Below are positions 7,508-63,714 of a stretch of 64,000 nt of DNA, in pieces. The notes under the pieces are model-generated. The model was not told the origin of the DNA. It saw only the letters and a list, made by a program, of their open reading frames with translations, and did no database searches. Position numbers and translations under genes: made by a program. The stretch spans positions 23,002,001 to 23,066,000 of the forward strand of contig NC_135901.1 in assembly GCF_964194155.1 (NCBI RefSeq), read 5' to 3'. Source of the DNA: Cetorhinus maximus. Its lineage: Eukaryota. The stretch's first letter is position 1. Each line of letters opens with the position of its first letter.

Positions 7508-7894
7508 CCTCCCCCAACAGGGCCATCTGTCACTTGTTTCTATGTTCTTCTTTCACAGAGTGCTGACTCTTGTCCTGCCATTCACAGATTCTGCTTTCTT
7601 ACCTTTGTGCCACTATCAACACGTTCTTTAGTCTTCACCACTGCCATTAACACTCCCTTTGTCTTTTGTCCATGACATATTTGTCTATCTCTCCTTAGCC
7701 TCCAACTGTTGCTGACCTATCCTGCTTTACCTGCTCCACCGCCCCCCCCCCCCCTTAAACAGTATAAATTCCATCACATTTCAACTTCTCTTTAGCTCTA
7801 AAGAAGAGTCATGTGGACTTGAAATGTTAAGTCTGTTTCTATCTCCACAGACACTGTCAGACCTGCTGACCATTTCCAGCATTTCCAGTTTTTA
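7508..7894 (+). mobile_element. PLE 3' end with decayed hammerhead
   Basis: Matches 52260-52640; TSD TTATGGCA at 7500-7507 and 7895-7902. Confidence 0.85.
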
Positions 7895-8204: not shown

Positions 8205-8800
8205 ATCATACCTGATTTCTCCATGGTGCAAGTTTCTTTGTGTTTCTCCAGGTTGGATGATCGATTGGAGCATTCTCCACACAAAACTTATGTGTGGTTT
8301 CTCCACACTTTGATTGCTGTGGTTTTATCAGGCTGTGAAACTGGTTAAAGCTCTTTCCACACACAGTTCACTGAAAGACTCTCACTGTGATAGGAGTGTC
8401 TCGGTGCTTTTCCAATTTCAATGATAATTTAAATGCACGGGCAAAACAAACAATTATTTCTCCTTCAAAAATAGCTGGAAAACTCAGCAGGTCTGACACC
8501 ATCTGTGGAGAGGAATACAGTTAACGTTTCAAGTCCGTATGACTCTTCATCTGAAAAGTCAAACGGACTCAAAACATTAACTGTGTTCCTCTCCACAGAT
8601 TCTGTCAGACCTGCTGAGTTTTTCCAGCTATTTTTGTTTTTGTTTCAGATTTCCAGCATCTGCAGTGTTTTGCTTTTATCAATTATTTTTCCTTCCCTAA
8701 TTGGAAGCTGACCATATATGAATGAAGTGATTGCATAAGATCTTTTGAGATTTTTGGTTTGAGTTTCCTGCCTGCAAATCCTCCCCTTCTAACCCCATGT
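8205..8800 (-). pseudogene. Truncated ZNF unit C
   Basis: Leader and degenerate fingers up to CTMEK; cut by L2; acceptor mutated. Confidence 0.7.
8467..8679. mobile_element. PLE-derived fold-back element
   Basis: Inverted arms of ~80 bp; 16-bp TSD caattatt t(c/t)tccttc at 8451-8466 and 8680-8695. Confidence 0.9.
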
Positions 8801-11240: not shown

Positions 11241-12113
11241 TCACTCAGTGAGAACTCGATGGGGTGTTGGAAAGGTGGCTGTCTGAGTGAATCCCTTTCC
11301 ACACAAGGACAAGGTGAATGGTTTCTTCGCATTGTGAACTTGCTGGTGTCTCAGCAGGTTGGATGACTGAGTAAATCCCTTCCCACACTTTGAGCAGATG
11401 AAAGGCCTCTCCCCAGTATGAATGCGCTGGTGTGCAATGAGGTCAGATGATCGCCTGAAACCAGTCCCACAGTGAGAACACCTGAATGGTCTCTCGTCAG
11501 TGTGAGCACGTCGATGGGACATCAGGTCCCCAGAACTTTTATAGCACTTGTCACAGTCCGAGCATTTAAAAGGTCTCTCATCAGTGTGAACTTGCTGGTG
11601 TCTCAGTAGATGGGATGATCTTGTGAATCCCTTCCCACACATGCAGCAGGTGAATGGCCTCTCCCCAGTGTGAATTCGTTGGTGTGTCAGCAGGTCTGAT
11701 GACAGAGTGAATCCCTTCCCACATTCAGAGCAGGTGAATGGCCTCTCCCCAGTGTGAACTCGCTGGTGTGTCAGCAGGTCAGCTGACCGAGTGAATCGCT
11801 TCTCACATTCAGAGCAGCTGAACAACCTCTCCCCAGTGTGAACTCGCTGGTGTGTCAGCAAGTTGGTTGAATTAATGAATCCCTTCCCACACTTGGAGCA
11901 GGTGAATGGCCTCTCCCCAGTGTGAACTCGCTGGTGTGTCAGCAGCGTGGACAACTGAGTGAATCCCTTCCCACATTCAGAGCAGGTGTACGGCCGCTCC
12001 CCAGTGTGAGTGCGTCGATGAGTTTCCAGCTTAGACTGGTAGCTGAATCCCTTCCCACAGTCCTCACATTTCCATGGTTTCTCTCTATTGTGGATGGTAC
12101 TTTTTCCTTCCAT
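11241..12113 (-). CDS. C2H2 zinc-finger protein D, 290 aa, 9 intact fingers
   Basis: ATG ORF with HTGERPF linkers; acceptor tttcacag at ~12223; further decayed fingers at 10935-11240. Confidence 0.9.
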
Positions 12114-12659
12114 GTTTAAAATCCAATGATATTCAGGTTACAATAAATTGGACGACTCCATCAGATCCTGATGTGATGTTTGGTTTGAGTTTCCCAACTG
12201 CAAATCCTCCTCTTCTAATATCCTGTGAAATTGATTTAAAACAGATAAAAAGGGAGTGAGAGTGAAACCAGTAAAACACAAAGACAGGCTGTGAAATTGA
12301 GCTGAATGAATCCGGTAATTTGTGGGGCTGACATCAGGGAAAAGTGGCCATGAAAACTGCTGGAATGTCGTAAAAAACCAACTGATTCACTAATGTCCTT
12401 CAGGAAAGGGAACCTGCCACCCGGTCTGGGTCTCACAAGACTCAAGCCTCCACAGGAGGACAGAACGTGAGAGGGGCAAGAGAGGCAGGGGGTGAAGGAA
12501 AGGGATTTTATATGTCTACAACTTGGCCAGAACTTTGACAAAAATTCCAAGAACCTCAACCTGCACCAACCAGAAAGACCAGGGTGGCAGGTGTATGTGA
12601 ACATCATCAACTTCAAGATCCCCTCCAAGTCACACATCACCTTGATCGAATGAACAGAA

Positions 12660-16875: not shown

Positions 16876-17330
16876 AAATAAAAACAGAAAGTACTGGAAA
16901 AACTCAGCAGGTCTGGCAGTGTCATTGGAGAGAGAAACAGAGTTAACATTTTGAGTCTAATACGACTCTCCTTCAGAACTGAAATGGACAGATTTTCATC
17001 CTTTATTCTGACATTAAAACTTACTGTGTCTTGTTTCTTTATCACAACCATTACCACTCCCTTTACCTTTCATTCAATTACATCTTTGTTGTTTAATCTC
17101 TCCCGCCCTCTAAATTATCCCTGACCTCTTTTGTTCGACCTGACACCATTTTTTCAACAGCATAAAACCCATCCCATTTCTACCTCTCTTCAGTTCCAAA
17201 GAAGACTCATATTTCACCCGAAACATTAACTCTGTTTCTCTCTCCACAGATGCTGCCAGACCTGCTGAGTTTTTCCAGAACCTTCTGTTTTTATTTCTGT
17301 TCTTCAGCATCCACAGGTATATTGCCTTCA
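16876..17330. mobile_element. PLE 3' end with inverted terminal copy
   Basis: Inverted arms 16876-16983 and 17190-17300; paralogous copy at 52700-52975. Confidence 0.8.
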
Positions 17331-19136
17331 AATAAGAGTTAAGCACACAGAGTGCCTGGCAGAGTTTAATTGAGTAATTCTACACCCGCCATATACCACA
17401 GTGACATTATTAAGAAAGGGCCAAGTTAAGAGAATATCCCTGGAATGACAGAGTCGATGAATTATGGAGTTAAAAATCAAAGGTATTAATATCCTGTAAT
17501 ATCACAAATACCAATTAGCTCGGATGTTGCAGTATGAAAGAACCCCACATAGTTGTCACATGAAAGAGGCAGTGTCCAATGGATGTATTAAGGCCACACC
17601 ACTGTTAAACTCCAGTGGGGTTTACGTGGATGGGCCTCGGTTTTATAAACAAGGACTGTATCAGACGAGTGCTGTGGCTTTGCTTCTTGACAGCCATAGT
17701 ACCTTTATTAAATATGCACCGTGATATTTAGCCCAGAAGTTTGAGGTTATTGTGATCACAGCCCTTCAATCTGTTACTGATGGAATCTCCAACTATTCTG
17801 AAAATATCCTTTAGTTGTAACTCCCTCAGAGAAAACCTACATCTCTGGCACAATAAAAACACAGCTTCTCCACAGCAGAAAGAAAATCACTCACCCACCA
17901 CTCCAAACTTCGAATGATTTGAGATCATGCTGGTAAGTGACTGGGACAAGTTGCTATTTGTAAGGTGAATGTACATCAGCAGGAGGAGTAAGTGAAGAGG
18001 GTGACGGTAATAACCAGGCCGACTGATTCACCAGGAAAGCTGCTCCAGAGGCGTTTCTTTGGGATCCACTCAAAACACAATCATTGGCACCGGTACGACA
18101 GTCTCCAGTTAAACCTGATTTTAAAACTTGTCAGGACCCTGACCCTGATGTGACTATGGTCAAAGAGGCCGTACACCATAGCAAAGACTTTCCCTCATCC
18201 CTCACAGCAAGTAAGGATTCACTCATCTTACACAATGAGGTTTTCTATCACAAGGATGGCTCTATTTTTGATTTAGGTCACACCTTGATGGCTTAGAAAA
18301 GAATGAATTTTGTTTATGAATCAAATTAGGAGAGTGTTTCTCTGTTTCAAGTCCTCAATATGTTATATAATTACTCTTGGTGACTGAGGATGCACCAGGA
18401 TGTCCATTACCTCCTGAACCTGTGTCTCACCTGTATCCAAATTAATCCGGCCCTGCGAAATGTAAGGTCCCAATGGGAACAACCCATCTGAATTATGTCG
18501 CTGGGTAACATGGGCAGGTCCACATCCCACAGTAAAGGAGGGGACTGGTAAATCCTGATAGTTATATGTATGTTGGCTGGTGGATTGAAGATTTCCCTGT
18601 CTGTAAAAATGATGCAGTCGCAACAGCTAAAACCTTGTGGGAACAAATCTTTACCAGATGTGGCATCCGGAAAAGGATAGTGAGTGATAATGATTCTCAA
18701 TTCACAGCAGAAGTAATGCAGCAGCTTTGTCATCTTGTAGGTGTGGAACAACATTTCCACATCCCCTATTACCCAGAGTCCAGTGGGATGGTCGGGAGCT
18801 TTAATCACTCGGGAGAAAAGACACTGACAAAAGCTGTCATGAGTGGAGCTGATGAACTGGTCAAGGCCAATGACTGGGTCACTGCCTTGCCTGGTGTCTT
18901 CATGACCATTCACTCCACTCCTGTTCAATCATCCGGTCACAGCCTATGAAAGGTCAGCCAATCCAGATTGTGAATCCCCCCGGGTGGCACTCCCCATGGC
19001 TACTGGACAGACTTAGGACCAGTTTCTCCACAACCCCCAACAAACTTTAACACCCTGATAAAAACAAAAGGCAAAAGTTGTTCTCACACTGAACAATTTC
19101 TCCTTTAACTCCTCTCACTTCCTCCAAATAAAAGGT

Positions 19137-20306
19137 GTGGCTATGGGTACCCGCAAGGGCCCCAGCTATGCCTGTCTCTTTATGGGGTATGTGGAACATT
19201 CCTTGTTCCAGTCCTACTCCGGCCCCCTCCCACAACTCTTTCTCTGGTACATCGATGATTACTTCGGTGCTGCTTCATGCTCTCGTCGGGAGCTGGAAAA
19301 ATTTATTAATTTTGCTTCCAATCTCCACCCCTCCATCATTTTCACATGGTCCATCTCTGACACATCTCTTCCCTTCCTTGACCTCTCTGTCTCAATTTCT
19401 GATGATAGACTGTCCACCAATATCCATTACAAGCCTACCGACTCCCACAGCTACCTCGACTACAGCTCCTCACACCCCGCTTCCTGTAAGGACTCCATCC
19501 CATTCTCTCAGTTCCTTCGCCTCCGTCGCATCTGTTCTGATGACGCCACCTTCAAAAACAGCTCGTCCTTCTTCCTTAACCGAGGTTTTCCACCCACGGT
19601 CGTTGACAGGGCCCTCAACCGTGTCCGGCCCATATCCCGCGCATCCGCCCTCACGCCTTCTCCTCCTTCCCAGAAACATGATAGGGTCCCCCTTGTCCTC
19701 ACTTATCACCCCACCAGCCTCCGCATTCAAAGGATCATCCCACGCCATTTCCGCCAACTCCAGCATGATGCCACCACCAAACACATCTTCCCTTCACCCC
19801 ACCTGGCGGCATTCTGTAGGGATCGTTCCCTCCGGGACACCCTGGTCCACTCCTCCATCACCCCCTACTCCTCAACCCCCACCTATGGCACCTCCCCATG
19901 CCCACGCAGAAGATGCAACACCTGCCCCTTCACTTCCTCTCTCCTCACCGTCCAAGGGCCCAAACACTCCTTTCAAGTCAAGCAGCATTTCACTTGCATT
20001 TCCCCTAACTTAGTCTACTGCATTCGTTGCTCCCAATGCGGTCTCCTCTACATTGGAGAGACCAAACGCAAACTGGGCGACCGCTTTGCAGAACATCTGC
20101 GGTCTGTCCGCAAGAAAGACCCAAACCTCCCTGTCGCTTGCCATTTTAACACTCCACCCTGTTCTCTTGCCCACATGTCTGTCCTTGGCTTGCTGCATTG
20201 TTCCAGTGAAGCCCAACGCAAACTGGAGGAACAGCACCTCATCTTCCAACTAGGCACTTTACAGCCTTCCGGGCTGAATATTGAATTCAACAACTTTAGA
20301 TCTTAA
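19137..20306 (+). CDS. PLE reverse transcriptase C-terminal half plus GIY-YIG endonuclease (partial)
   Basis: AMGT, YIDD, PFLD, CPRRRCNTC, VYCIRCSQCGLLYIGET, QPSGLN; 389 open codons. Confidence 0.9.
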   Translation: MAMGTRKGPSYACLFMGYVEHSLFQSYSGPLPQLFLWYIDDYFGAASCSRRELEKFINFASNLHPSIIFTWSISDTSLPFLDLSVSISDDRLSTNIHYKPTDSHSYLDYSSSHPASCKDSIPFSQFLRLRRICSDDATFKNSSSFFLNRGFPPTVVDRALNRVRPISRASALTPSPPSQKHDRVPLVLTYHPTSLRIQRIIPRHFRQLQHDATTKHIFPSPHLAAFCRDRSLRDTLVHSSITPYSSTPTYGTSPCPRRRCNTCPFTSSLLTVQGPKHSFQVKQHFTCISPNLVYCIRCSQCGLLYIGETKRKLGDRFAEHLRSVRKKDPNLPVACHFNTPPCSLAHMSVLGLLHCSSEAQRKLEEQHLIFQLGTLQPSGLNIEFNNFRS

Positions 20307-20676
20307 ACTCCCCCTCCCCCCATCCCCACCCCGTTTCTCCCCCCTCCACCTTTTTTTTCAATAATTTATATAGATTCTTCTTTTCCCACCTATTTCCATT
20401 ATTTTTAAATCTAAAACTAAAACTTTGTTAGTCTTTCCACCCCACCCCCACTAGAGCTGTACCGTGAGTATCCTGCCTTCCATTCTTAATTAGCACTTTT
20501 CTTAGATAATATCACCACCTTCAACACCTCTTTGATCCTTTTGTCTGTGACATCTTTTGATTATCTGCTCCTATCACTGCTTGCTTATCCCCACAATCAC
20601 CCCACCCTCAACTTCTCTCTCCCCCCCCGCTCCCCACCTTAGACCAGCTTATATTTCACCTCTCTCCTAACTATAC

Positions 20677-20719
20677 TCAGTTCTGCCGAAGGGTCGTGAG
20701 GACTCGAAACGTTAACTGA
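20677..20719 (+). ncRNA. Minimal type I hammerhead ribozyme motif (A6->C)
   Basis: TCAGTT CTGCCGA A GGGTC gtgag GACTC GAAA CG TT/AACTGA: 6-bp stem I, 5-bp stem II, palindromic ACGU stem III. Confidence 0.75.
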
Positions 20720-21459
20720 TTTCTTCTCCACCGATGCTGCCAGACCTGCTGAGTTTTTCCAGGTAATTCTGTTTTTGTTTTGAACTTTAACACCCTCCCT
20801 GCTACAGGCAGTGGAGAAGATGGTGCTGCCCATCACAACACCTCCAGGGAGAACCAACCCACCCATTACATTAACTGTTCAATGAGAGATGAAGTCACGT
20901 TAAAACGTTAATAACATTGTTAAACGGGGTTGGTCTTGGGGGTGGGGTGGGGGGGGGGGAGGGGGGGCTACCTGGGAATATCCATTTGATGATCTAAATA
21001 GATTGGGAGAAATAAATCTTATATTAGCAAATTGGAAACGAGGGAAGGAAATACAATATCTGTGTTACCATGGAGATCAGTGTAAACTGTACAAAATGAA
21101 AAGGTCAGATAATGAGGAGAATAAACGCTGTGTTTGATTTTATCCAACAGGGACAATATGTGGACGGTCATCGTGCTCCCGGGCTGTGTCCAGGCTGAAG
21201 TTCTGTTCCTGCCGTATGATCCTCCCCCAGATTGTCCTTTCTGAGCTCCAGCCAGGTGATGTTAAACACTCAGGTGGGAAAGACAAAAATCTACAATATG
21301 TTTAAAACAAAGCTGATTTATTTGATACAGAACCAGAATACTAAACTTCAGTTCAATTATTAACATCAGAAGAAAGAAACATCAACTCTCAGAATGAACC
21401 TGGTTCAGTCCTGGGTGTGATTAACAGCAGCAATAACAGCAGAATCTAACCCCTGCTGT

Positions 21460-22520
21460 CACTTGTGAACTCACTGGTGTCTCACCAGGTGGGATAACTG
21501 AGTGAATCCTTTCCCACACCCTGAGCAAGTAAACAACCTCCCCGCAGTGTGAACTCGCTGGCGTCTCAGGAGGTTGGATAAATGGACGACTCTATTCCCA
21601 CACTCAGAGCAGGTGAAAGGCCTCTCCCGTGTGTGTACGTTGGTGTGCTAGCAATTCACGCCTGCTTTTAAAGCTCTTCTCACAGTCAGAACATTTAAAA
21701 GACCTCTGATCAGTGTGAACCAGTTGGTGTGCAGTGAGGCAGGATAATCATGAGAATTTCTTACCTCACACAGAGCAGGCGAATGGCCTCTCCCCGTGAG
21801 AAATCGCCGGTGTATCAGAAAGTCGGATGAATGAATCCGTTCCCACACTCGGATCGGGTGAACTGCCTCTCCCTGCTGTTGGTGTGTCAGCAACTGGTAC
21901 CTACTTTTAAAGCCCTTCTCACAGTCAGGACATTTGAAAGGTCTCTTGTCTGTGTGAACCAGTTGGTGAAGGTGAGGTGGGCTGACTGAATGAATTCCTC
22001 CCACAGGTAGAGCAGGTGAATAGCCTCTCTCCAGTGTGAACTCGCTGGTGTATCCGAAGGTCAGATGAATTAATGAATCCATTGCCACACAAGAAGCAGG
22101 GGAATGGTCTCTCCCCAGTATGAGTGTGTGGATGGATTTCCAACTGCAATTGGCATTTGAATCCCTTCCCAGAGTCCCCACATTTCCATGGTTTCTCCAT
22201 GGTCCTTCTGCCTCTCCAACTTGGAAGATCAGTTGAAGCTTCGTCCACACACACACAACACATGTACACTTTCTCCTCGCTGTGAGTGGTATGATTGTTT
22301 TCAGGCTGTGTACCAGAACACTGGAACACTTGCACCCAGGTGTGTGTGTCTCGGTGCCTTTCCGGTCACTGATGTTTGAAATCTCTTCCCAAGGACAAAC
22401 ATTTCTCCTTCCATGTTCAAAGGCCGATGATATTCAGGCCCTGATGAATCGAGTGACTCTGTCAGATCTTGATAATTGGTTTTAGTTTCACAGCTGTAAA
22501 TCCTCTCCTCCTAATACATT
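21460..22520 (-). pseudogene. Frameshifted ZNF unit E
   Basis: Fingers alternate between frames (ORFs 21925-22335, 21648-22256); acceptor AG->AA. Confidence 0.85.
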
Positions 22521-24642: not shown

Positions 24643-25428
24643 TTACTTGTGAACTCGCTGGTGTCTCAGCAGGGTGGATGAGTGAGAAAACCCCTTCTTA
24701 CACACAGAGCAGGTGAATGGCTTCTCCCCAGTGTGAACTCGCTGGTGTGTCAGCAAGGTTGACGACTGAGTGAAACTCTTCCCACAGTCAGAGCAGGAGA
24801 ATGGTCTCTCCCCAGTGTGAACCCGCTGGTGCTCCAGCAGGTCAGTTGACTGAGTGAATCCCTTCCCACACTTGGAGCAGGTGAATGGTCTCTCCCCAGT
24901 GTGAACTCGCTGGTGCGTCAGCAGGCGTGATGACTGAGTAAATCCCTTCCCACACTCCATGCAGGTGAACGGACTCTCTCCAGTGTGAACTTGTTCGTGC
25001 ACAGTGGGGTCAGATAATTGCCTGAACCCAGTCCCGCAGTGAGAGCACCTGAATGGTCTCTCATCAGTGTAAACACGTTGATGGCGCATCAGTTCCCCTG
25101 AACTTTTATAGCACTTCCTGCAGTCTGGGCATTTAAAAGGTCTCTCATCAGTGTGAACTCACTGGTGAGCCAACAGGTTGCATGACAGAGTGAATCCCTT
25201 CCCACACTTGGAGCAGGTGAATGGTCTCTCCCTAGTGTGAATGCGATGATGAGTTTCCAGTTCAACTGGATTATTGAATCCCTTCCCACAGTCCCCACAT
25301 TTCCAACGTTTCTCCCCATTGTGACTGCATTTATGTTCTGACAGGTTAGATGATTGGTTGAAGCCTCGTCCACTCACAGAACACGTGTACGGTTTCTCTT
25401 CACTGTGGATGGTGCTTTCTCCTTCCAT
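24643..25428 (-). pseudogene. ZNF unit F with one in-frame TGA
   Basis: ORFs 25159-25434 and 24643-25089 share a frame; HQ*VHT at 25159-25161 where paralogs have CGA. Confidence 0.85.
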
Positions 25429-28955: not shown

Positions 28956-30020
28956 TGCCCTTTGCAATTGAAACACAACATTTCAACGTCGGATGAAACC
29001 AGGAATTTCACTTGTAAATAAAATATTATGATCACTGCACTATGGAAATCAGTGTCAAATATCCCTGACCAAGGGGAACTGACCATACATCTCTCAGTCT
29101 AATTCACAAAAAGGAAATGCTGGGAATACTGAGTAGGTCAGACCGAGTCTGTGGAGAGAGAAACAGTTAATGGTCCAAGATACTGAACGTCCATTGGGAC
29201 AAGTTCACAGACACAGAAAGTGGCGGTTGGGGAAATAATAAAAGAGAAGTTTGTGACTGGGAGAGATTAAATAACAAAGGGGATGAGGATGCAAGGCAAA
29301 AGCGATGGTAATGGAACTAGTGATGAAACTACAGGTGGAAGAACGTTATGTATCTGTCATCTATTTCTGCTCTGATTGGAAATGTGTTGCTTCTCTGTTG
29401 ACCCATTTCACTTCACTAAAAACTCAATCTTTCTCCACCATTATCCTTTACAAACATTTAATTGAATAAACATAGGCAGTTACATAGGAAAACAATCATC
29501 ATTTTGAAGTGTTGAAACAATGAAACACATATTTTCATAAGCATCTTGTTCATGGTTCATGTTAATATTTTACAGATAATCTTTAGTTTGGGGAAGATTA
29601 AGGTTGTGAGGATAAGGTTATTAACATTCTAGGCTTTTGAAATTGCCACAACATCTCAAGAAATGGCAGTTCAAAGTGTTGTTTAACATGGTCTGCATAG
29701 AAGAGGGAGCGAGAGAGAGAAAGCTATAAAATGGCAGGTGAACTCATTTGGCTAGAAATCTGGAGACAGAATGTGTATGAGCTGTATTGTCCTGACTTTG
29801 TTAATAAGATAATTTTTTTAAGCAGGCTTCGAGGTTAAGAAGTTTGGTTAATTAACGTTAATATATATTGGTACATAGGCTCGCTTTTGAAATACCATCA
29901 TGCATTGTACATTAGACCACACCTACAAACTTGTCCCTTGTACTTCCAGTGAAGTCGAGGGCAGTTTTCAGTGGCTGCTTCAGTCGACTGAAAATCAGGG
30001 TGATGCACAGAAACAGTGTG

Positions 30021-30158
30021 GTTCTGATGAAAGGTCACAGACTGAAATACATGTAAACTTTGTTTCTTTCTCCACAGACGCAATCAGATCTGCTGAAAAT
30101 TCCAGCACTTTCTGTTTTTCATTCAGATTTCCAGCATCCGCAGTATTTTTCTTTTCCT
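30021..30158 (+). mobile_element. PLE terminus with hammerhead-like core
   Basis: CTGATGA aaggtc aca gact GAAA followed by the PLE tail. Confidence 0.65.
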
Positions 30159-31110: not shown

Positions 31111-31254
31111 GCAGGAGGAGAGACTATTGTGAATTTCCTGGACTGACGGGTGGATTTTGGAAACTCCTTTCACAGGAGGTTAGAAGGGGAGGATTTACAC
31201 ACAGCAAATTCAAACCAAGAGAAATGTTTGTCTCGTCTGACATAGGTCTTTAAA

Positions 31255-31484
31255 ATAAAAACAAAAATTGCTGGAAAAACTCAGCAGGTCTGACAGCATC
31301 TATGGAGAGAAAGACAGAGTTAATGTTTCGAGTCCATATGACTTCTTCAGAACTCAAGAGTCATACGGACTCGAAACATTAACTCTGGCTTTCTCTCCAC
31401 AGGTGCTGTCAGACCTGCTGAGCTTTTCCTGCAATTTTTATCTTTGTTTCAGATTTCCAGCATCCACATTATTTTGCTTTTAAC
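31255..31484. mobile_element. PLE-derived fold-back element
   Basis: Inverted arms of ~90 bp; exact 12-bp TSD TAGGTCTTTAAA at 31243-31254 and 31485-31496. Confidence 0.9.
31317..31355 (-). ncRNA. Minimal hammerhead motif with intact core boxes
   Basis: GAGTT CTGAAGA AGTC atatg GACT C GAAA CA TT/AACTC; stem III has G->A. Confidence 0.7.
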
Positions 31485-32069
31485 TAGGTCTTTAAAGTCC
31501 TCATTAGGATGGGCAGGTTGATGCGGACAGAATGTTTCCACTTGTTGGTCCATCCAACGCTGGAGGTCATGCGTACACAATAGTTACAAATAAATCCAAC
31601 AGGAAAACTGGAGATGCTTCTTTTTTGAGGCAGTAATTAAAATGTGGAACTCGCTGCTACAGTAAGTGGCTGAGAAAAATATCTGAGACTCTTTCAAAAA
31701 GAAACTGGATGAGAACATGAGAGAAAAGGGATTAGAAAGATCAACTGAACGGCTGAGATGAGGTTGGCAGAATGGGAGGGAATTCATGTGGAGTAGAAAC
31801 TCCAGTACAGACTAGATAAAATGAATGGCCTGTTTGTGTAATGTATACTCTGTGTAATTCTTTGTAAACTTATTTTACAGGGTATTAGAAGAGGAGGATT
31901 TGCAGACAGGAATATCAAACCAAACTGCACATCTGACAGAGTCAACTGGTTTATTGGGACCTGAAGATTTGTACTTCTGAAGGGATTTAATCGACCGTCT
32001 CAGCTGGAAACCGGTGAGAGGCTGTTCACCTGCTCCTCCTGTGTGAAGGGATTGATAGAGCTGGGAAAC

Positions 32070-33494
32070 ATGCTGACACGACAGCGAGCTCACAACAGTG
32101 AGAGGCTGTTCACTTGCTCTGCGTGTGGGAAGAAATTCATGTGTTCATCCAACCTGCTGGCACACCAACTCGATCACATTGATGAGAAGCCTCTTCAACG
32201 CTCTGACTCTGGGAAAAACATTAAAATCTCCGAGGAACTGGCCCAACACCAGCAAGTTCACACTGATGAGAGACCGTTCAGCTGCTCCCACTGCGGGAAG
32301 AGGTTCAGGCTGTCCTCCCGCCTCGCGGAGCACCAGCTCCTTCACACACACGAGAGGCCATTCAGCTGCTCTCACTGTGGGGAGTCGTTCAGCGAGTCAG
32401 TGCATCTCACTGAGCACCAGCGAGTTCACACCAAGGACAGGCCATTCAGCTGCTCCCAGTGTGGGAAGGCATTCACTCAGTTTTCAAGCTACACTAAGCA
32501 CCAACTGGTTCACTCAGATGAGAGACCTTTTAAATGCTCTGAGTGTGAGAAAACCTTTAAAAGAAGCATTGATCTGCTGAGACACCAGTGCATTCACACT
32601 GGGGAGAGACCGTTCCCCTGCTTTGTGTGTGGAAAGAGATTCACTCATTCTTTCCACCTTCTGACACACAAGCGTGGTCACACTGGGGAGAGACCATTCA
32701 TCTGCTCCGTGTGTGGAAAGAGTTTCATTCGGTCATCCAGCCTTCTGATACACCAACGAGTTCACACCGGGGAGAGACCGTTCACCTGCTCCGTATGTGG
32801 CAAGGGATTCACTCGTTCAAGCCAACTTCTGATACACAAACGAGTTCATACTGGAGAGAGACCGTTCACCTGCTCCGTGTGTGGGAAGAGATTCACTCAG
32901 TCAGCCAACTTGCGGACACATCAGCGGGTTCACACCGGGGAGAGGCCGTTCATCTGCTCCGTGTGTGGCAAAAGTTTCTCTCGTTTGTCCTACCTTGAGG
33001 TACATGAGCGAGTTCACACCGGTGTGAGGCCGTTCACCTGCTCCACGTGTGGGAACAGATTCGCTCATTCATCCCATCTGGTGAGACACCAGCGCAGTCA
33101 CACTGGAGAAAGGCCGTTCACCTGCACTGTGTGTGGGAAGGGATTCACTTGTTCATCTTATCTGGTGAGACACCAGCGCATTCACACTAGGGAGAGGCTG
33201 TTCACCTGCTCCTTGTGTGGGAAGGGATTCCCTGATTCAACCCACTTGCTGAGACACCACCGCATTCATATGGGGTTGAGGCCGTTCTCCTGTTCTGTGT
33301 GTGAGAAGGGATTCACTAAGTCATCCAACCTGCTGAGACACCAACGCGTTCACACTGGGGAGAGACCATTCACCTGCTCCGTGTGTGAGAAGAGATTTAC
33401 TCGGTCATCCGACCTGCTAAAACATAAGCGAGTTCACATGTTACCAGAAAAGTTGGATTCAGTTGTTGATGCTGAGGATCACATCCAGAACTGA
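32070..33494 (+). CDS. C2H2 zinc-finger protein G, 15 intact fingers
   Basis: ORF open from 32043, first ATG at 32070; acceptor ttttacag at 31880. Confidence 0.92.
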   Translation: MLTRQRAHNSERLFTCSACGKKFMCSSNLLAHQLDHIDEKPLQRSDSGKNIKISEELAQHQQVHTDERPFSCSHCGKRFRLSSRLAEHQLLHTHERPFSCSHCGESFSESVHLTEHQRVHTKDRPFSCSQCGKAFTQFSSYTKHQLVHSDERPFKCSECEKTFKRSIDLLRHQCIHTGERPFPCFVCGKRFTHSFHLLTHKRGHTGERPFICSVCGKSFIRSSSLLIHQRVHTGERPFTCSVCGKGFTRSSQLLIHKRVHTGERPFTCSVCGKRFTQSANLRTHQRVHTGERPFICSVCGKSFSRLSYLEVHERVHTGVRPFTCSTCGNRFAHSSHLVRHQRSHTGERPFTCTVCGKGFTCSSYLVRHQRIHTRERLFTCSLCGKGFPDSTHLLRHHRIHMGLRPFSCSVCEKGFTKSSNLLRHQRVHTGERPFTCSVCEKRFTRSSDLLKHKRVHMLPEKLDSVVDAEDHIQN

Positions 33495-39094: not shown

Positions 39095-39311
39095 AAAAAC
39101 AGAGATTGCTGCAAAATCTCAGCAGGTCTGGCAGCATCAGTGGCGAGAGAAACAGAATTAACGTTTTGAGTCCAAAATGACTCTTCTTCGGTTCTGAAAC
39201 ATTAACTTGGTTATTCTCTCTCCAGAGATGCTGCCAGACCTGCTGAGTTTTTACAGCACTTTCTGTTTTTACTTTCGATTTGCTGCATCCACACCATTTA
39301 TGTTTTATTTC
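39095..39311. mobile_element. PLE-derived fold-back element
   Basis: Inverted arms; 11-bp TSD actgtt(g/a)ttct at 39084-39094 and 39312-39322; empty paralogous site near 56365. Confidence 0.9.
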
Positions 39312-40811: not shown

Positions 40812-41849
40812 TTATTCATGAACCCACTGGTGTCTCAGCAGGTGGGATGAGTGAGCAAATCTCTTATTACACATAGAGCATATGAATGGCCTCTCCCCAG
40901 TGTGAACCCGCTTGTGTCTCAGCAGGGAGGATGAGTGAGCAAATCTCTTCTCACACACAAAGCAGATGAATGGCCTCTCCCCAGTGTGAACTCGCTGGTG
41001 TGTCAGCAGGTTGGATAAGGTGGTGAATCCCTTCCCACACTCGGAGCAGGTGAATGGCCTCTCCCCAGTATGAACTCGCTGGTGTATTAGCAAGGTGGAT
41101 GACTGAATGAATCCTTTCCCACACTCAGTACAGGTGAATGGCCTCTCCCCAGTGTGAGTGCGTTGATGTATCAGCAGGTTGGATAAGGTAGTGAAGCTCT
41201 TCTCACACAGAGGGCAGGTGAATGGTCTCTCCCCAGTGTGAACGCGCTGGTGTGTCAAGAGGTCAGTTAACCGAGTGAATCCCTTCCTACACTCAATGCA
41301 GGTAAATGGCCTCTCCCCAGTGTGAATCCGCTGGTGTACAGTGAGTTGAGATGATTGTCTAAACCCAGTCTCACAGTGAGAGCACCTGAACTGTCTCTCG
41401 TCAGTGTGAACACCTTGATGGGACATCAGTTCACTGGAACTTTTAAAGCACTTCCCGCATTCTGGGCATTTAAAAGGCTTCTCGTCAGTGTGAACACGTT
41501 GATGGGACATCAGCTCATCAGAACTTTTATAGCACTTCCCACAATCTGGACATTTAAAAGGTCTCTCCTCAGTGTGAACTCGCTGGTGTTTCAGCAGGTG
41601 GGATGACCGAATGAATCCTTTGTCACACACGGAACAGGTGAACGGCTTCTCCCCAGTGTGACTGCGTCGATGAGCTTCCAGCTCAGACGGGAATCTGAAT
41701 CCCTCATTACAGTCCCCACATTTCCACCGTTTCTCCCCAGTGTGACTGCGCTTGTGTCTCGACAGGTCAGATGATTGGCTGAAGCCTCGTCCACACACTG
41801 AACATGTGTACGGTTTCTCCCCACTGTGAACGGTGCTTTTTGCCTCCAT
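40812..41849 (-). CDS. C2H2 zinc-finger protein I, 12 intact fingers
   Basis: First ATG (MEAK) at 41849; acceptor tttcacag near 41954; AATAAA near 40685. Confidence 0.92.
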
Positions 41850-42111
41850 GTTAAAAATCTGATGATATTCAGGATACAATAAATTGGGCAACTGCAACAG
41901 ATCCTGGCATGATATTTGAGCTTCCTGACAGTGAATCCTCCCCTTTTAATACCCTGTGAAATTGTTTTAAAACATAAAAAATAAAAGCAGAAAGGCAGGT
42001 AGTGAAATTGAGCTGAATGAATCTGACAATTTGTGGGGCCGGCACGAGGAAAAAGTGACCGTGAAAACTGCTGGATTGTTATAAGCACTCAGCTGGTTCA
42101 ATAATGTCCTT

Positions 42112-52400: not shown

Positions 52401-52675
52401 CCCTTTGTCTTTTTGTTCATGACACCTTTGTCAATCTCTCCTTTGCCCTCACCTATCACTATCTATCTAGCTTCACCTGCTCCACCACATCCCCTCCCCC
52501 CAACTAAACAGTATAAATGTCATCACATTTCTACCTCTCTTTAGCTCTGAAGAAGTCATATGGACTCAAAATGTTAACTCTGTTTTTCTCTCCACAGATG
52601 CTGCTAGGCCTGCTCAGTTTTCCCAGCATTTTCTGTTTGTATTTCAGATTTCCAGTATCCGCAGTATTTTGCTTT
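49456..52675 (+). mobile_element. Long degenerate Penelope-like element
   Basis: KGLCF, KPADK, TIDVQSLYTSIP, YIDD and GIY-YIG remnants; exact 15-bp TSD TGCTGAGGAGATATT at 49441-49455 and 52676-52690; hammerhead at 52543-52579. Confidence 0.93.
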
Positions 52676-53116
52676 TGCTGAGGAGATATTAATGGTTCAT
52701 TGAACTAAAAACAGAAAGTGTGGAAAAACTCAGCAGGTCGGGCAGCCTCTGTGGAGCGAGAAACAGAGTTAATGTTTCGAGTCCAATATGACTCTTCAAA
52801 ACAGAACCGGTCTTTTGTCCTGTATTCTGACAGTAAAACTTACAGTGCTTTGTTTCTTTATTATAACCACTCCCATTGCCTTTTGTTCCATGACATCTTT
52901 GTTATTTAATCTATCCAGCTCTCGAACCTATCACTGGGCTTCTCGTTTGTTCTACCCAACCCTCCCCGCTTTCTCACTGAAAGCATCTACAGAAATACTT
53001 GTTTCTGAAACAATATTCTGTAACGTTGAACAGACAGTGTCCATTTAACAACCTGATCTCACATGGAATCTACCTCCTTTTGACAATTTCACATCGGAAA
53101 TTGCCGGGCCAGACAT

Positions 53117-55285
53117 CTTTTTTATTCATTCATGGGATGTGGGCATCACTGATAGGCCAACATTTATTGCCCATCCCTAATTGCCCTTGAGAACGCGGTG
53201 GTGAGCTGCCTCCTTGAACCGCTGCAGCCCATATGGTGCAGGTACACCCACAGTGCTGTTCGGAAGGCAGTTCCAGGATTATGACCCAGCGACAGTGAAG
53301 GAACGGTGATATATTTCCAAGTCAGGATGGTGAGTGACTTGGAGGGGAACTTCCAGGTGGTGGTATTCCCATCTACCTGTTGCCCTTGTCTTTCTAGATC
53401 ATAGTGGTCATGGGTTTGGAAGGTGCTGTCTGAGGAGCCTTGGTGAATTCCTGCAGTGCATCTTGTAGATGGTACACACTGCTGCTACTTGCGTCGGTGG
53501 TGGAGGGAGTGAATGTTTGTGGATGTGGTTCCAATCAAGCGGACTGCTTTGTCCTGGATGATGTCAAGCTTCTTGAGTGTTGTTGGAGCTGCACTCATCC
53601 AGGCAAGTGGGGAGTATTCCATCACACTCCTGACTTGTGCCTTATAGATGGACAGCCTCTGGGGCGTCAGGAGGTGAGTTACTTGTCGCAAGATTCCTAG
53701 CCTCAGATCTGCTCTTGCAGCCACAGTATTTATATGACTAGTCCAGTTCAGTTTCTGATCAATGGTAACCCCCAGGGTGTTGACAGTGGGGAATTCGGTG
53801 ATGGTAATGCCATTGAATGTCAAGCGGCGATGGTTAGATTCTCTTTTGTTGGAGCCTGGCACTTGTGTTGTGCAAATGTTATTTGCCACTTGTCTGCCCA
53901 AGCCTGGATATTGTCCAGGTTTTGCTGCATTTGGACATGGACTGCTTCAGTATCTGAGAAGTCGTGAATGGTGCTGAACATTATGCAATTGTCAGCGAAC
54001 ATCCCCACTTCTGACCTTATGATGGAAGGAAGGTCATTGATGAAGCAGCTGAAGATGGTTGGGCCTAGGACACTACCCTGAGGAGCTCCTGCAGAGATGT
54101 CCTTGAACTGAGATGATTGACCTCCAACAATCACAAGCACCTTCCTTTCTGCTAGGTATGACTTCAACCAGCAGAGAGTTTTCCCTGATTCCTATTGACT
54201 CCAGTTTTTCTAGGGCTCCTTGATGCCACACTGGGTCAAATGCGGCCTTGATGTCAAAGGCAGTCACTCTCACCTCACCTCGGGAGTTCAACTCTTTTGT
54301 CTATGCTTGAACCAAGGCTGTAATGAGTTCAGGAACTGGGAGCCCCTGGTGGAAGCCAAACTGGGCGTCAGTGAACAGGTTATTGCTAAAGAAGTGCCAC
54401 TTGATAGCACTGTTAATGACCCCTTCCATCACTTTACTGATGATTGAGAGTGGACTGATGGGGCGGTAATTGGCTGCGTTGGATTTGTCCTGCTTTGTGT
54501 GCATAGGACAAACCTGGGAAATGTTCCACATAGCCAGGTAGATTCCAGTGTTGTAGCTGTACTGGAACAGCTTGGCTAGGGGTGCGGCAAGTTCTGGAGC
54601 ACAAGTCTTCTGTCCTATTGCCAGAATATTGTCAGGGCCCATAGCCTTTGCAGTATCCAGTGCCTTCAGCTGTTTCCTAATATCACGTGGAGTGAATTGA
54701 ATTGGTTCAAGACTGGCAACTGTGGTGTTGGGGACCTCCGGAGGAGGCCGAGATGGATCATCCACTCGGCACTTCTGGCTGAAAATGCTTCAGCCTTATC
54801 TTTTGCACTTATGTTCTGGGCCCCGCCAGCATTGAGGATGGGGATATTTGTGGAGCCTCTTCTCCAGGTGAATTGTTTAATTGTCCACCACCATTCATGA
54901 TTGGATGTGGCAGGACTGCGGAGCTTAGATCTGATCCATTGGTTGTGGGATCGCCTAGTTCTATTACTTGCTGCTTATGCTATTTGGCACGCAAGCAGTC
55001 CTGTGTTATAGCTTCACCAGGTTGACACCTCATTTTAAGGTATACCTGGTGCTGCTCCTGGCATGCCCTCCTGCACTCTTCATTGAACCAGGGTTGATTC
55101 CCATTGCTTGATGGTAATGGTAGAGTGGGGGATATGCCTGGCCACGAGGTTACGGATTGTGTTCGAGTACAATTCTGCTGCTGCTGATGGCCCACAGCGC
55201 CTCATGGATGCCCAGTCTTGGGTTGCTAGATCTGTTTGAAATCTATCCCATTTAGCACGGTGCTCTTGCCACACAACACCATGCG
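53117..55285 (-). mobile_element. CR1/L2-group LINE ORF2, frameshifted
   Basis: NYRPISPL, FDIKAAFDPVWH, PQGSVLGP, MFADNC, VRSVMEYS. Confidence 0.92.
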
Positions 55286-56113: not shown

Positions 56114-56439
56114 AGGAGCTGTCCTGATGGATTCAGACTGCGACATTCCATTGTTCCAGATGCGTTTGTTCTAGGAACCAGATTTAAGGGCCCTATCATT
56201 GGAGCTTCGAGGGGGGTGAATGGCCAACTCTTAATTCTTATGTTCATGTAATTACCACAGTCATTTTCAGACTGGAAACTTAAACCTGCCGTTTCACTTT
56301 CAGTCAGGAACAGATCACAGTTTTACACCAATCTCTGATTTGACAGCACATTTCCAGCATTCACCGTTGTTCTTCATGACTCTAAACACAGTTGTAAAGG
56401 CGCCTTCTGTTCCGTGTCTAGGAGCTCTGAACCAGGGAA

Positions 56440-57625
56440 ACAGGCGGAATGAATCAGTGAATCTTTTCCCACACTCGAAGCAGGTGAATGGTCTCTCCCC
56501 TGTGTGAGCTCGCTGGTGTTGCAGCAGGGTGAATGCCTGAGAGAATTCTTCCCCCACGTGGAGCAGATGAACAGCCCCACTCCAGTGTGAGTGCACTGGT
56601 GTCTCAGAAGATTAATGCTGCTTTTAAAGATCTCCTTGCAATCAGAACGTTTAAATCTTCTCAAGTCAGTGTGAACTTGCTGGTGTCTCAGGAGGTTGGA
56701 TGAATGAGTGAATCCCTTCCCACACTCGGAGCAGATGAACGGTCTCTCTCCAGTGTGAACTCGCTGGTGTACAGTGAGTTGAGGTGATCGCCTGAACCCA
56801 GCCCCACAGTGAGAGCACCTGAACGGTCTCTCGTCAGTGTGAACTTGCTGATGGCGCATCAGTGCCCTGGAACTTTTATACCATTTTTCACAATCTGGAC
56901 ATTTGAAATGTTTCTCATCAGTGTGAACTCGCTGGTGTTTCAGCAGAGTGGATATATCAGAGAACCCCTTCCCACACTCGGAGCAGGTGAATGGCCTCTC
57001 TCAAGTGTGAACTCGCTGGTGTTTCAGTAGGTTGGAAGAACTAGTGAATCCTTTCCCACACTCTGAACACGTGAAAGGCTTCTCCCCAGTGTGAATGCGT
57101 CGATGAATATCTAATTCAGATGGGTAATTGAATCCCTTCCCACAATCCTGACATTTCCACGGTTGCTCTGTGGCACCAACCCCAATGTGGCTGTGTCGAT
57201 GGTATTCCAGACGGGATGGATAATTGAATCCCTTCCCACAGTCCCCACATTTCCATGGTTTCTCCACGGTGTTCATGTCTTTGTCTTTCCAGGTTGGACA
57301 ATCTGTTGAAGCCTTGTGCACACACAGAACACGTGTACGGTTTCTCCTCACTGTGAATGGTGCAATGTATTTTCAGGCTCTGTAACTGGTTAAAGCTCTT
57401 TCCACAGTCAGTTCACTGGAACACTCTCACTCAGATGTGTGTGTCTTGGTGCTTTTCCAGTCACACTGATGTTTGACATTTTTTCCCACAGACAGAATAG
57501 GCAAGCTTTTCTCTGTGCACATTCAAAGGCCGATGATATTCAGGTCCAGGTGAATCAAGTGACTCTGTTAGATCTTGACGTGATGATTTTTTTTCTGTCT
57601 GCCAATCTTCAGCTAACAACATCCT
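56440..57625 (-). pseudogene. ZNF unit J
   Basis: Stop at 57001-57003 in a linker, later frameshift; finger array breaks off into sequence paralogous to 38965-39370. Confidence 0.85.
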
Positions 57626-60859: not shown

Positions 60860-61022
60860 TAAAATACGGCGAATGCTGGAAATGTGAAATAAAAACAGAA
60901 AGTTCTGGAAATCCTCAGCAGGTTTGGCAGCTTCTGTGAAGAGAGAGAAACAGATTTAACATTTCCAATCCAATATGATTCTTCTTCAGAACTGAGTATT
61001 TCCAGCATTCTGATTTCATTTT
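60860..61022 (-). mobile_element. PLE terminus with hammerhead-like core and short inverted arm
   Basis: Minus cagtt CTGAAGA agaatc atattg gattg GAAA tgtt at 60953-60994. Confidence 0.75.
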
Positions 61023-62558: not shown

Positions 62559-62957
62559 TACGGTGATGACTTTAGTGAACTCCTTTCACAGCCGCTTAGA
62601 AGTGAAGGATTGCAGAAGTGAAATTCAGATCAAACCTCATATCAAGTTTTGGTTGAGGCAGTCCATTCATCAGGACCTCAATATCATCCGCCTTTAAATG
62701 TGGAAGGAGAAATGTTTATTTGTTCTGTCTGAGGGAAAAGATTTCAAACATCAGTGTGACTGGAACAGCACCAAGACACACACACACCCGAGAGAGAGTG
62801 TTCCAGTGAACTGACTGTGGGAATAGCTTTAACCAGTTACACAGCCTGAGGAAAACATCACAGTATTCACAGCAGGGAGAGAATGTACATGTGTTCTGTG
62901 TGTGGATGAGGCTTCAAGCGATCTTCCAACCAATAGGAACACAAACGCACCCACACA

Positions 62958-63714
62958 ATGGAAAAACTGTGGAAATATGAGGATTGTGGGAAAGGATTCA
63001 GTTACCCATCCCTGCTAGAAAACCATCGACGCAGTCACACTGGGGAGAGGCTGTTCACCTGCTCTGAGTGTGGGAAGAGATTCACTCAGTTATCCAACCT
63101 AGCATTATACCAGCGAGCTCATACCGGGGAGAGGCCGTTTACCTGCTCAGTGTGTGGGGAGGGATTTACTGGGACATCCCACTTACTGTCACACCGGCGA
63201 ATTCACATTGAAGAGAAGCCATTCAGCTGCACTTCCTGTGGAAAGAGTTTCAGACAGGCATCCTCCCTCATTTTACACCAGCGAGTTCACACTGGGGAGA
63301 GACCGTTCACCTGCTCCACGTGTGCGAAGGGATTCACGGTTTTGCCCACCCTGCTGAGACACCTACGAATTCACACTGAGGAGAAGCCTTTCAGCTGCAC
63401 TTTCTGTGGAAAGAGGTTCAGGCAGTCTTCCAACCTCGTTTTACATCATCGAGTTCACACTGGGGAGAGACCGTTCATCTGCTCCGTGTGTGGGAAAGGT
63501 TTCAATCGGTCATCGAATCTCACTGCACACCAGTGAGTTCACACTGGGGAGAGACCATTCACTTGCTCGCTGTGTGGGAAGGGATTTGCAAAGTCTTTCA
63601 ACTTGTTGACCCATCAACTTACTCACACTGAGAAGATACCATTCAACTCTCTGTGTGTGGGAAGGGATTCACTCAGTCACGATGCCTCCTGAGACATCAG
63701 CAAATTCATAAGTG
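62958..63714 (+). pseudogene. ZNF unit K, truncated (192-aa ORF, 4 intact fingers)
   Basis: C->Y and H->Y in the first two fingers; TGA at 63534-63536 in HQ*VH; later frameshift; ancestral stop HK* near 63714. Confidence 0.75.

Follow-up and report, generated by a model that had tools for sequence, protein, structure and literature searches.

In the 64,000-nucleotide stretch of Cetorhinus maximus DNA analysed here (the window), the sequence 20677-20719 has the parts of a hammerhead ribozyme but carries C at core position 6. This raises the question of whether the letter marks one damaged copy or a form that the element has spread, and whether such a form would still serve cutting. Minimal dimer-type hammerheads are established constituents of the pseudo-LTRs of Penelope-like elements (PLEs) (PMC4209133; reviews PMC6765202, PMC6155905), and whether PLEs need them or carry them as passengers has been stated as an open question (PMC8557442, PMC11167929).

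The motif and the element that carries it

All parts of the motif that the first-pass annotation had named were found in place. Stem I is formed by 20677-20682 paired with 20714-20719, the core box CUGCCGA occupies 20683-20689 and is followed by an additional A at 20690, stem II pairs 20691-20695 with 20701-20705 and includes one G-U pair, GAAA lies at 20706-20709 and ACGU at 20709-20712, and the predicted cut of the GUU site is 3' of 20713. The sequence shows the GAAA box, A15.1-U16.1, an NUH site, the extra base after A9, G10.1-C11.1 and a palindromic, loopless stem III (ACGU), as is typical for the family. In contrast, the family core CUGANGA with A6 is replaced by a core with C6 at 20686, a change that is family-wide in this element, so that 20677-20719 represents a variant and not a consensus member. 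The hammerhead-type fold, in which stems I and II surround the core and the ends are joined in stem I, lies at most 0.2 kcal/mol from the minimum. The folding energy of 20677-20719 was not better than that of shuffled sequences (z -0.72), and z-scores across the cases (-1.5 to +1.1) gave no signal. The search with a hammerhead model, which had been proposed as a check, came out divided: the Rfam scan returned no hammerhead match at E<=10, whereas a full descriptor, run over the 64-kb window with up to four mismatches, matched only two copies, 20677-20719 and one ending at 8553 on the minus strand, and matched nothing in any of 20 shuffled windows. Since reversed-pattern controls also gave 0 matches across 3.99 Gb, a chance origin of the motif is excluded. 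With an ordinary folding energy and no Rfam match, the case for a hammerhead is thus built on motif, context and covariation, and not on stability. By these sequence features, 20677-20719 belongs to the minimal hammerheads of type I that occur in PLE pseudo-LTRs, which is a known arrangement.

With the metazoan PLE hammerheads of Cervera and de la Pena (2014, PMC4209133) the motif shares the type I topology, the lack of a stem III loop, the palindromic 15.2-16.2, the extra base after A9, G10.1-C11.1, a U-rich flank, a GUU or GUC site, the pseudo-LTR location and an occurrence in thousands of copies. However, A6 is found in all 44 alignment rows covered from their Fig. S3, although their descriptor demanded it, whereas U6 and C6 dominate the young lineage described here; no cartilaginous fish name was found in the available part of their supplement file 2. 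The same core change is known from phage Bcep176, whose A6C hammerhead is slow in Mg (PMC3088659, PMC7151607). The phage hammerhead is a single rare example, whereas about 21,700 exact C6 and 29,000 U6 motifs occur here in a vertebrate retroelement and in a loopless dimer-type frame. Non-LTR retrozymes likewise contain type I hammerheads derived from PLE pseudo-LTRs, but they are tandem non-coding repeats, whereas the present copies lie scattered as stubs of an element that encodes protein and are hence not retrozymes (bioRxiv 10.64898/2026.07.22.740005). In that preprint, canonical and minimal models were used to look for retrozymes in one cartilaginous fish.

The insertion that holds the motif is truncated at its 5' side and has the hammerhead in its 3' pseudo-LTR (Table 1), which agrees with the earlier assignment to a PLE 3' end. 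The insertion is 96.9% identical to an intact copy, besides a 12-base deletion. Full units comprise 3,291 bases with a single 917-codon ORF, for which Pfam gave RVT_1 (E 2e-6) and GIY-YIG (E 4.5e-4), both slightly short of the Pfam cut-offs. The element thus has the single ORF with reverse transcriptase (RT) and C-terminal GIY-YIG endonuclease of EN+ PLEs, as well as pseudo-LTRs from partial tandems, inverted 5'-truncated arms and a tail. Its relatives have a common 3' end near 20782, variable 5' ends and frequently an inverted arm. A CX4CX2C linker between RT and endonuclease is present in the translated frames P0001 and P0002; a CX2-5CxxC linker is diagnostic of Neptune and common to Nematis (PMC8557442). 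The linker would therefore place the element in one of these two clades, and we refer to it as Neptune-type. Neptune-clade PLEs share with it the RT, the linker, the C-terminal GIY-YIG, the partial tandems and the inverted 5'-truncated arms (PMC8557442).

Table 1. Coordinates of the analysed insertion, its parts and related sequences in the window.
Feature	Position	Strand	Remark
Whole insertion, 5'-truncated Neptune-type Penelope-like element	19057..20782	+	14-bp duplication; common 3' end of relatives near 20782
Target-site duplication, left copy	19043..19056	+	
Target-site duplication, right copy	20783..20796	+	
18-base inverted stub	19057..19074	-	16/18 match to second, longer element end in 5' UTR
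3' part of ORF: RT C-terminal half (YIDD), CX4CX2C linker, GIY-YIG endonuclease	19075..20306	+	
3' UTR / pseudo-LTR including hammerhead	20307..20782	+	end 69 bases past predicted cut
Pile-up stretch of short relatives' 5' ends	20675..20683	+	A at 20679 is likely transcription start
Minimal type I hammerhead motif, A6C variant	20677..20719	+	C6 at 20686; predicted cut 20713/20714
Older A6-type pseudo-LTR remnant, decayed core	7795..7879	+	
Head-to-head pair, older CUGAUGA-type pseudo-LTR stubs	8466..8645	both	
Head-to-head pair, older A6-type remnants, broken cores	16876..17296	both	
Old remnant, CUGAUGA box, stem II decayed	30020..30119	+	
Head-to-head pair, older A6-type stubs	31249..31449	both	source of false miRNA-like Rfam matches
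Head-to-head pair, older A6-type stubs	39095..39270	both	
Tail-to-tail pair, older remnants; one A6, one U6 with insertion	52543..52805	both	
Old A6-type remnant, stem II decayed	60887..60999	-	

Three intact 917-codon ORFs were found, which differ at 10-14 of 2,754 bases (about 99.5% alike) and all belong to C6 elements; two of the three elements are arranged in tandem, and each of their pseudo-LTRs carries C6. Two hammerheads spaced by 3,291 bases are present at loci L220 and L221, whereas the window insertion has only one, and its nearest same-strand relative, near 17190, is a broken remnant. Thus, the window copy is left without a usable partner in cis and is probably an inert, truncated, single-motif stub. 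Folding of a dimer returned strand-swapped stems and not the ACGU helix, so that it does not constitute a test of the dimer.

The inverted stub at the left end of the insertion likely reflects a second start of reverse transcription, and in 24 locus matches, some of which represent the same place twice, the tail is followed by this second, longer end. For the Poseidon element of the green anole, two RT start sites within the RNA, downstream of the hammerhead, have been shown (PMC11167929). This element also shares the pseudo-LTR hammerhead and the inverted and tail structures, but its ORF starts within the hammerhead, whereas here the long frame has its first ATG 154 bases 3' of the predicted cut; unlike Poseidon, the present element has the CX4CX2C linker of Neptune/Nematis (PMC8557442). 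In several head-to-head pairs the two arms end at nearly equal positions (L244/L245 210/212, L182/L183 243/241, L288 105/105, L057/L058 74/72). Arm ends that agree so closely suggest a fold-back of one cDNA and not two independent copies.

As to the surroundings, the window is a zinc-finger gene cluster with seven C2H2 frames, one of them degraded (11241-12137, 21648-22433, 24643-25158, 31965-33494, 40812-41945, 56374-57000 and 62937-63536). Directly left of the insertion lies an integrase core remnant (rve, E 1e-8; 18536-18949, plus strand), which probably stems from an old LTR element, and a weak RVT_1 match (E 1e-4; 54301-54789, minus strand) marks another retroelement fragment.

Core position 6 across the genome and its order in time

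Besides the insertion, blastn within the window returned 12 matches at E<=2e-11, 6 weaker ones and one short T-rich match, and the relatives include four head-to-head pairs and one tail-to-tail pair. The miRNA-like Rfam matches in this region turned out to be inverted element stubs. The ten sites that had previously been listed as related motifs are all relatives (10/10), with A at position 6 in nine, U in one and C in none. They belong to older A6 families, unlike the C6 subfamily of 20677-20719. The consensus of the first-pass annotation, from which 20677-20719 had been read as an imperfect copy to be restored to CUGAAGA, pools it with these older families; for 20677-20719 this reading is wrong, as CUGCCGA is the normal core of the whole young subfamily. 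A cleavage assay on that consensus would consequently address the ancestral and not the current ribozyme.

Genome-wide counts were obtained with one exact pattern that was altered at position 6 only, which biases them toward well-preserved copies, and yielded 12,305 intact motifs with A6, 29,039 with U6, 21,706 with C6 and 637 with G6. Among motifs with young-type stem II loops there were 93 with A6 compared to 35,093 with U6 or C6, a level of A6 that could be supplied by mutation after insertion; the patterns used would overlook any young A6 lineage whose stem II differs. In 30 loci picked by endonuclease DNA alone the core was mostly CUGCCGA and in some cases CUGUUGA. A6 is still common among decayed copies, since 51 arbitrarily placed 10-kb stretches, searched with up to four mismatches, contained 11 A6, 7 U6 and 6 C6 motifs. 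Judged from these sequences, C6 is a lineage trait of the young subfamily and not the decay of one copy; copy-specific damage as its cause is ruled out by the genome counts and by the subfamily-wide occurrence of C6.

A tree was built from those 81 of the 275 collected motifs that have endonuclease DNA upstream. All seven A6 rows fall outside a group of 68 rows with 100/99 support (61 C6, 7 U6, 0 A6), and the end branches of the A6 rows measure 0.029-0.094; the tree is midpoint-rooted, with an unsettled bootstrap and weak inner structure. CpG decay at two core sites, which serves as an independent clock, agrees with the tree (A6 16/36, U6 13/82, C6 8/90). Together, tree and clock show for the sequences compared that position 6 was A first, then U and then C. 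The path that we infer runs from CUGAAGA over CUGAUGA and CUGUUGA to CUGCUGA and CUGCCGA.

The kind of motif is already known; provisionally new are the change of a core letter throughout the family, the copy numbers for each letter, the intermediate U6 state and the relative ages of the states. In the literature listings and passages covered, neither A6U nor A6C was found described for a PLE, nor was a comparable sweep. The novelty is provisional because the work of Lunse et al. 2017 on PLE hammerhead variants may already describe variants at position 6. Searches fixed on CUGANGA would miss about four fifths of the intact motifs counted here, so that PLEs reported to be without hammerheads may merit re-examination.

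Conservation of the fold and the 5' ends of the copies

For the analysis of conservation, 225 of 369 tail-anchored copies, namely those reaching upstream of the motif, were aligned. A second letter exceeding 8% was observed at position 6 only among the 13 core columns compared to 23 of the 54 columns in the flanks (p 0.016, Fisher test), and position 17 is exclusively U or C. In the 108 copies outside the selection by ribozyme pattern or query, the core conservation has a p of 0.079 and G12 also exceeds 8%, where it is counted as variable because of CpG decay. Pair 10.4-11.4 occurs as U-A in 165 copies, C-G in 49 and U-G in 6 (5 unpaired), pair 10.2-11.2 as G-U in 154, A-U in 58 and G-C in 10 (3 unpaired), and pair 2.1-1.1 as U-A in 193 and U-G in 28 (4 unpaired). 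The dinucleotide 15.2-16.2 is CG in 197/225 copies and has a CpG-decay form in 26. In at least 47/225 copies, C/C or U/C interrupts the outer pair of stem I. In 21 chosen representatives (20 distinct), stem II was 100% and stem I 92.6% paired, compared to 20-45% in slid controls for stem II. Covariation, proposed earlier as a check on both stems, was thus found for stem II, with one pair showing a two-sided change and a wobble intermediate and another one-sided changes, whereas stem I changed on one side only; this evidence amounts to about five lineage events. For the U6 form, a pairing with the AACG strand is predicted, which would be 2.4 kcal/mol better than the open core.

The 5' ends of the copies were recorded in two tail-only censuses, one of the first 100 young-tail matches listed and one of 77 older-tail copies among the matches listed (n=177). 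At the 5' strand of stem I, 28/177 ends were located among the matches listed compared to 4.2 expected. Ends with an inverted arm are not independent, and the 121 ends without such an arm still comprised nine at stem I compared to 2.2 expected (p 5e-4). At the cut site, there was no excess among the matches listed (4/177 ends compared to 3.2 expected), and the same holds for the older-tail census, which includes A6 copies (2/77 compared to 1.3, likewise among the matches listed). Hence, the 5'-end test shows no cutting, neither in the A6 nor in the U6/C6 class.

From the pile-up of 5' ends we infer that 20679, the A in stem I, is the first base of the element RNA. The pile-up sequence resembles an initiator. 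A TATA-less internal promoter with an initiator is known from Drosophila Penelope (PMC2377424). In 40 truncated copies that start with the AG of stem I, the preceding base was C in 20, G in 11, U in 6 and A in 3. The preceding C and U may be templated; the preceding G exceeds A (p 0.009) but not the background (p 0.25), which gives a weak hint that an extra G might be a copied cap.

Some observations concern possible introns around the motif. A branch-point-like and pyrimidine-rich sequence at 20665-20680 ends with AG at the start of stem I, and the pyrimidine tract upstream of stem I is stronger in older families. D. virilis has an intron at the corresponding place (PMC4209133). An intron with its 3' end at this AG is not supported, as the copies that begin there share no upstream exon; splicing from varied donors would still be compatible. 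Downstream, a 10-codon upstream frame begins at window position 20734, and a long hairpin predicted to follow the hammerhead (L220:4190-4257) encloses the first element end. This region (L220:4190-4257; window 20734-20768) is possibly a protein-binding element. An intron that would follow the short frame, with its GT at L220:4220, is not supported either, since the acceptors closest to it yield 34-43 bases and stop codons.

What the changed core might do

A6C lowers Mg-dependent cleavage in phage and engineered hammerheads (PMC7151607, PMC3088659), and by analogy the change at position 6 in the roughly 35,000 young copies likely slows cutting. The reading that we favour, at slightly better than an even chance, is that of a putative damped ribozyme, possibly gated by protein, which is likely situated where the element RNA begins and in which position 6 went from A over U to C while the other core letters and the stems were kept. 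The RNA would begin at 20679, and reverse transcription would be initiated 69 (or about 110-120) bases 3' of the predicted cut and would copy back through the motif, so that each copy reaching the ORF would have come from an RNA that was uncut or re-joined at the site. Fast cutting would cost the RNA its cap or would separate the template from its priming site, and a weak core would therefore be tolerated or favoured. Such a core might cut rarely, either when the two pseudo-LTR copies, which are separated by 3,291 bases, form a dimer or when the element's protein assists. In the anole, the PLE hammerhead cleaves only with the element's protein (PMC11167929). It is the cost of fast cutting, the slowdown of A6C in Mg and the protein-dependent cutting in the anole which argue for the damped ribozyme over the explanations discussed below. 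A further-reaching version strikes us as rather speculative: the lineage would have stepped its ribozyme down (A6, U6, C6) during the expansion to tens of thousands of copies, the ribozyme would start at the first base of a capped RNA and be licensed by the protein, and cutting with re-joining would yield a circle in which the priming site comes to lie behind the ORF. The loss of an upstream AUG was also considered as the reason for the change from A6 to U6 and is not supported, as the young loops gained another AUG.

It could also be that the motif no longer cuts and that its shape and most of its letters serve another job, for example protein binding or an internal promoter past the start site. 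We regard this as unlikely, though as the strongest of the alternatives. It would fit that 5' ends are not in excess at the cut site among the matches listed, that A6 was not regained in the young lineages (93/35,186) and that U6 is predicted to close the core. In the anole, ribozyme-dead mutants insert normally in vitro, insertion thus proceeding without cleavage, and RNA reads ending at the cut were absent in the data described (PMC11167929); Naiad PLEs thrive without hammerheads (PMC8557442), and the internal promoter of Drosophila Penelope sets a precedent for the promoter variant (PMC2377424). However, the sites that do vary (7, 17 with U/C only, loop II and the paired letters of the stems) fit catalytic rules and not a promoter, the invariant C3, G8, G12, A13, A14 and ACGU likewise follow hammerhead catalysis, and natural A6C hammerheads retain some activity (PMC7151607, PMC3088659).

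Less probable still is that a chance mutation which broke the ribozyme hitchhiked with a successful master element and that the core seems conserved because too little time has passed. The small number of lineage events, the p of 0.079 in the unselected subset and the view that PLE hammerheads are possibly passengers (PMC8557442) are in line with such a scenario, but since the loss of A6 drift in the DNA of the endonuclease has reached up to about 10% and position 6 itself changed again, and each lineage-level change in stem II kept the pairing, including the series U-A to U-G to C-G. That the C6 form is a Mn-preferring ribozyme coupling cutting to cell metal levels appears very improbable: A6C does prefer Mn over Mg, at 0.3 mM by a factor of more than 10,000 in one construct, but the authors doubt its physiological relevance (PMC7151607), the lineage went through U6, for which no such Mn data were found in the available portions of the literature searched, and nothing in the present analysis ties the element to metals.

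The genome holds a dated natural series from A6 over U6 to C6 that ends in intact, near-identical elements. Thus, the rate of the ribozyme can be compared directly with copying success, which would provide a test of whether PLE hammerheads need to cut.

Three further observations were made on related sequences. At L226:1289-1437, two hammerheads on the same strand, only 69 bases apart and accompanied by an inverted third one, represent a naturally occurring C6 dimer with close spacing. L224:1263-5501 (minus strand) contains a 1,412-codon open frame with a start like that of the normal ORF, which is probably a fused or internally duplicated copy. Of 22 contig runs, most of which are only presumed to be RNA, four were compared, and element-related sequence was observed in three other organisms.
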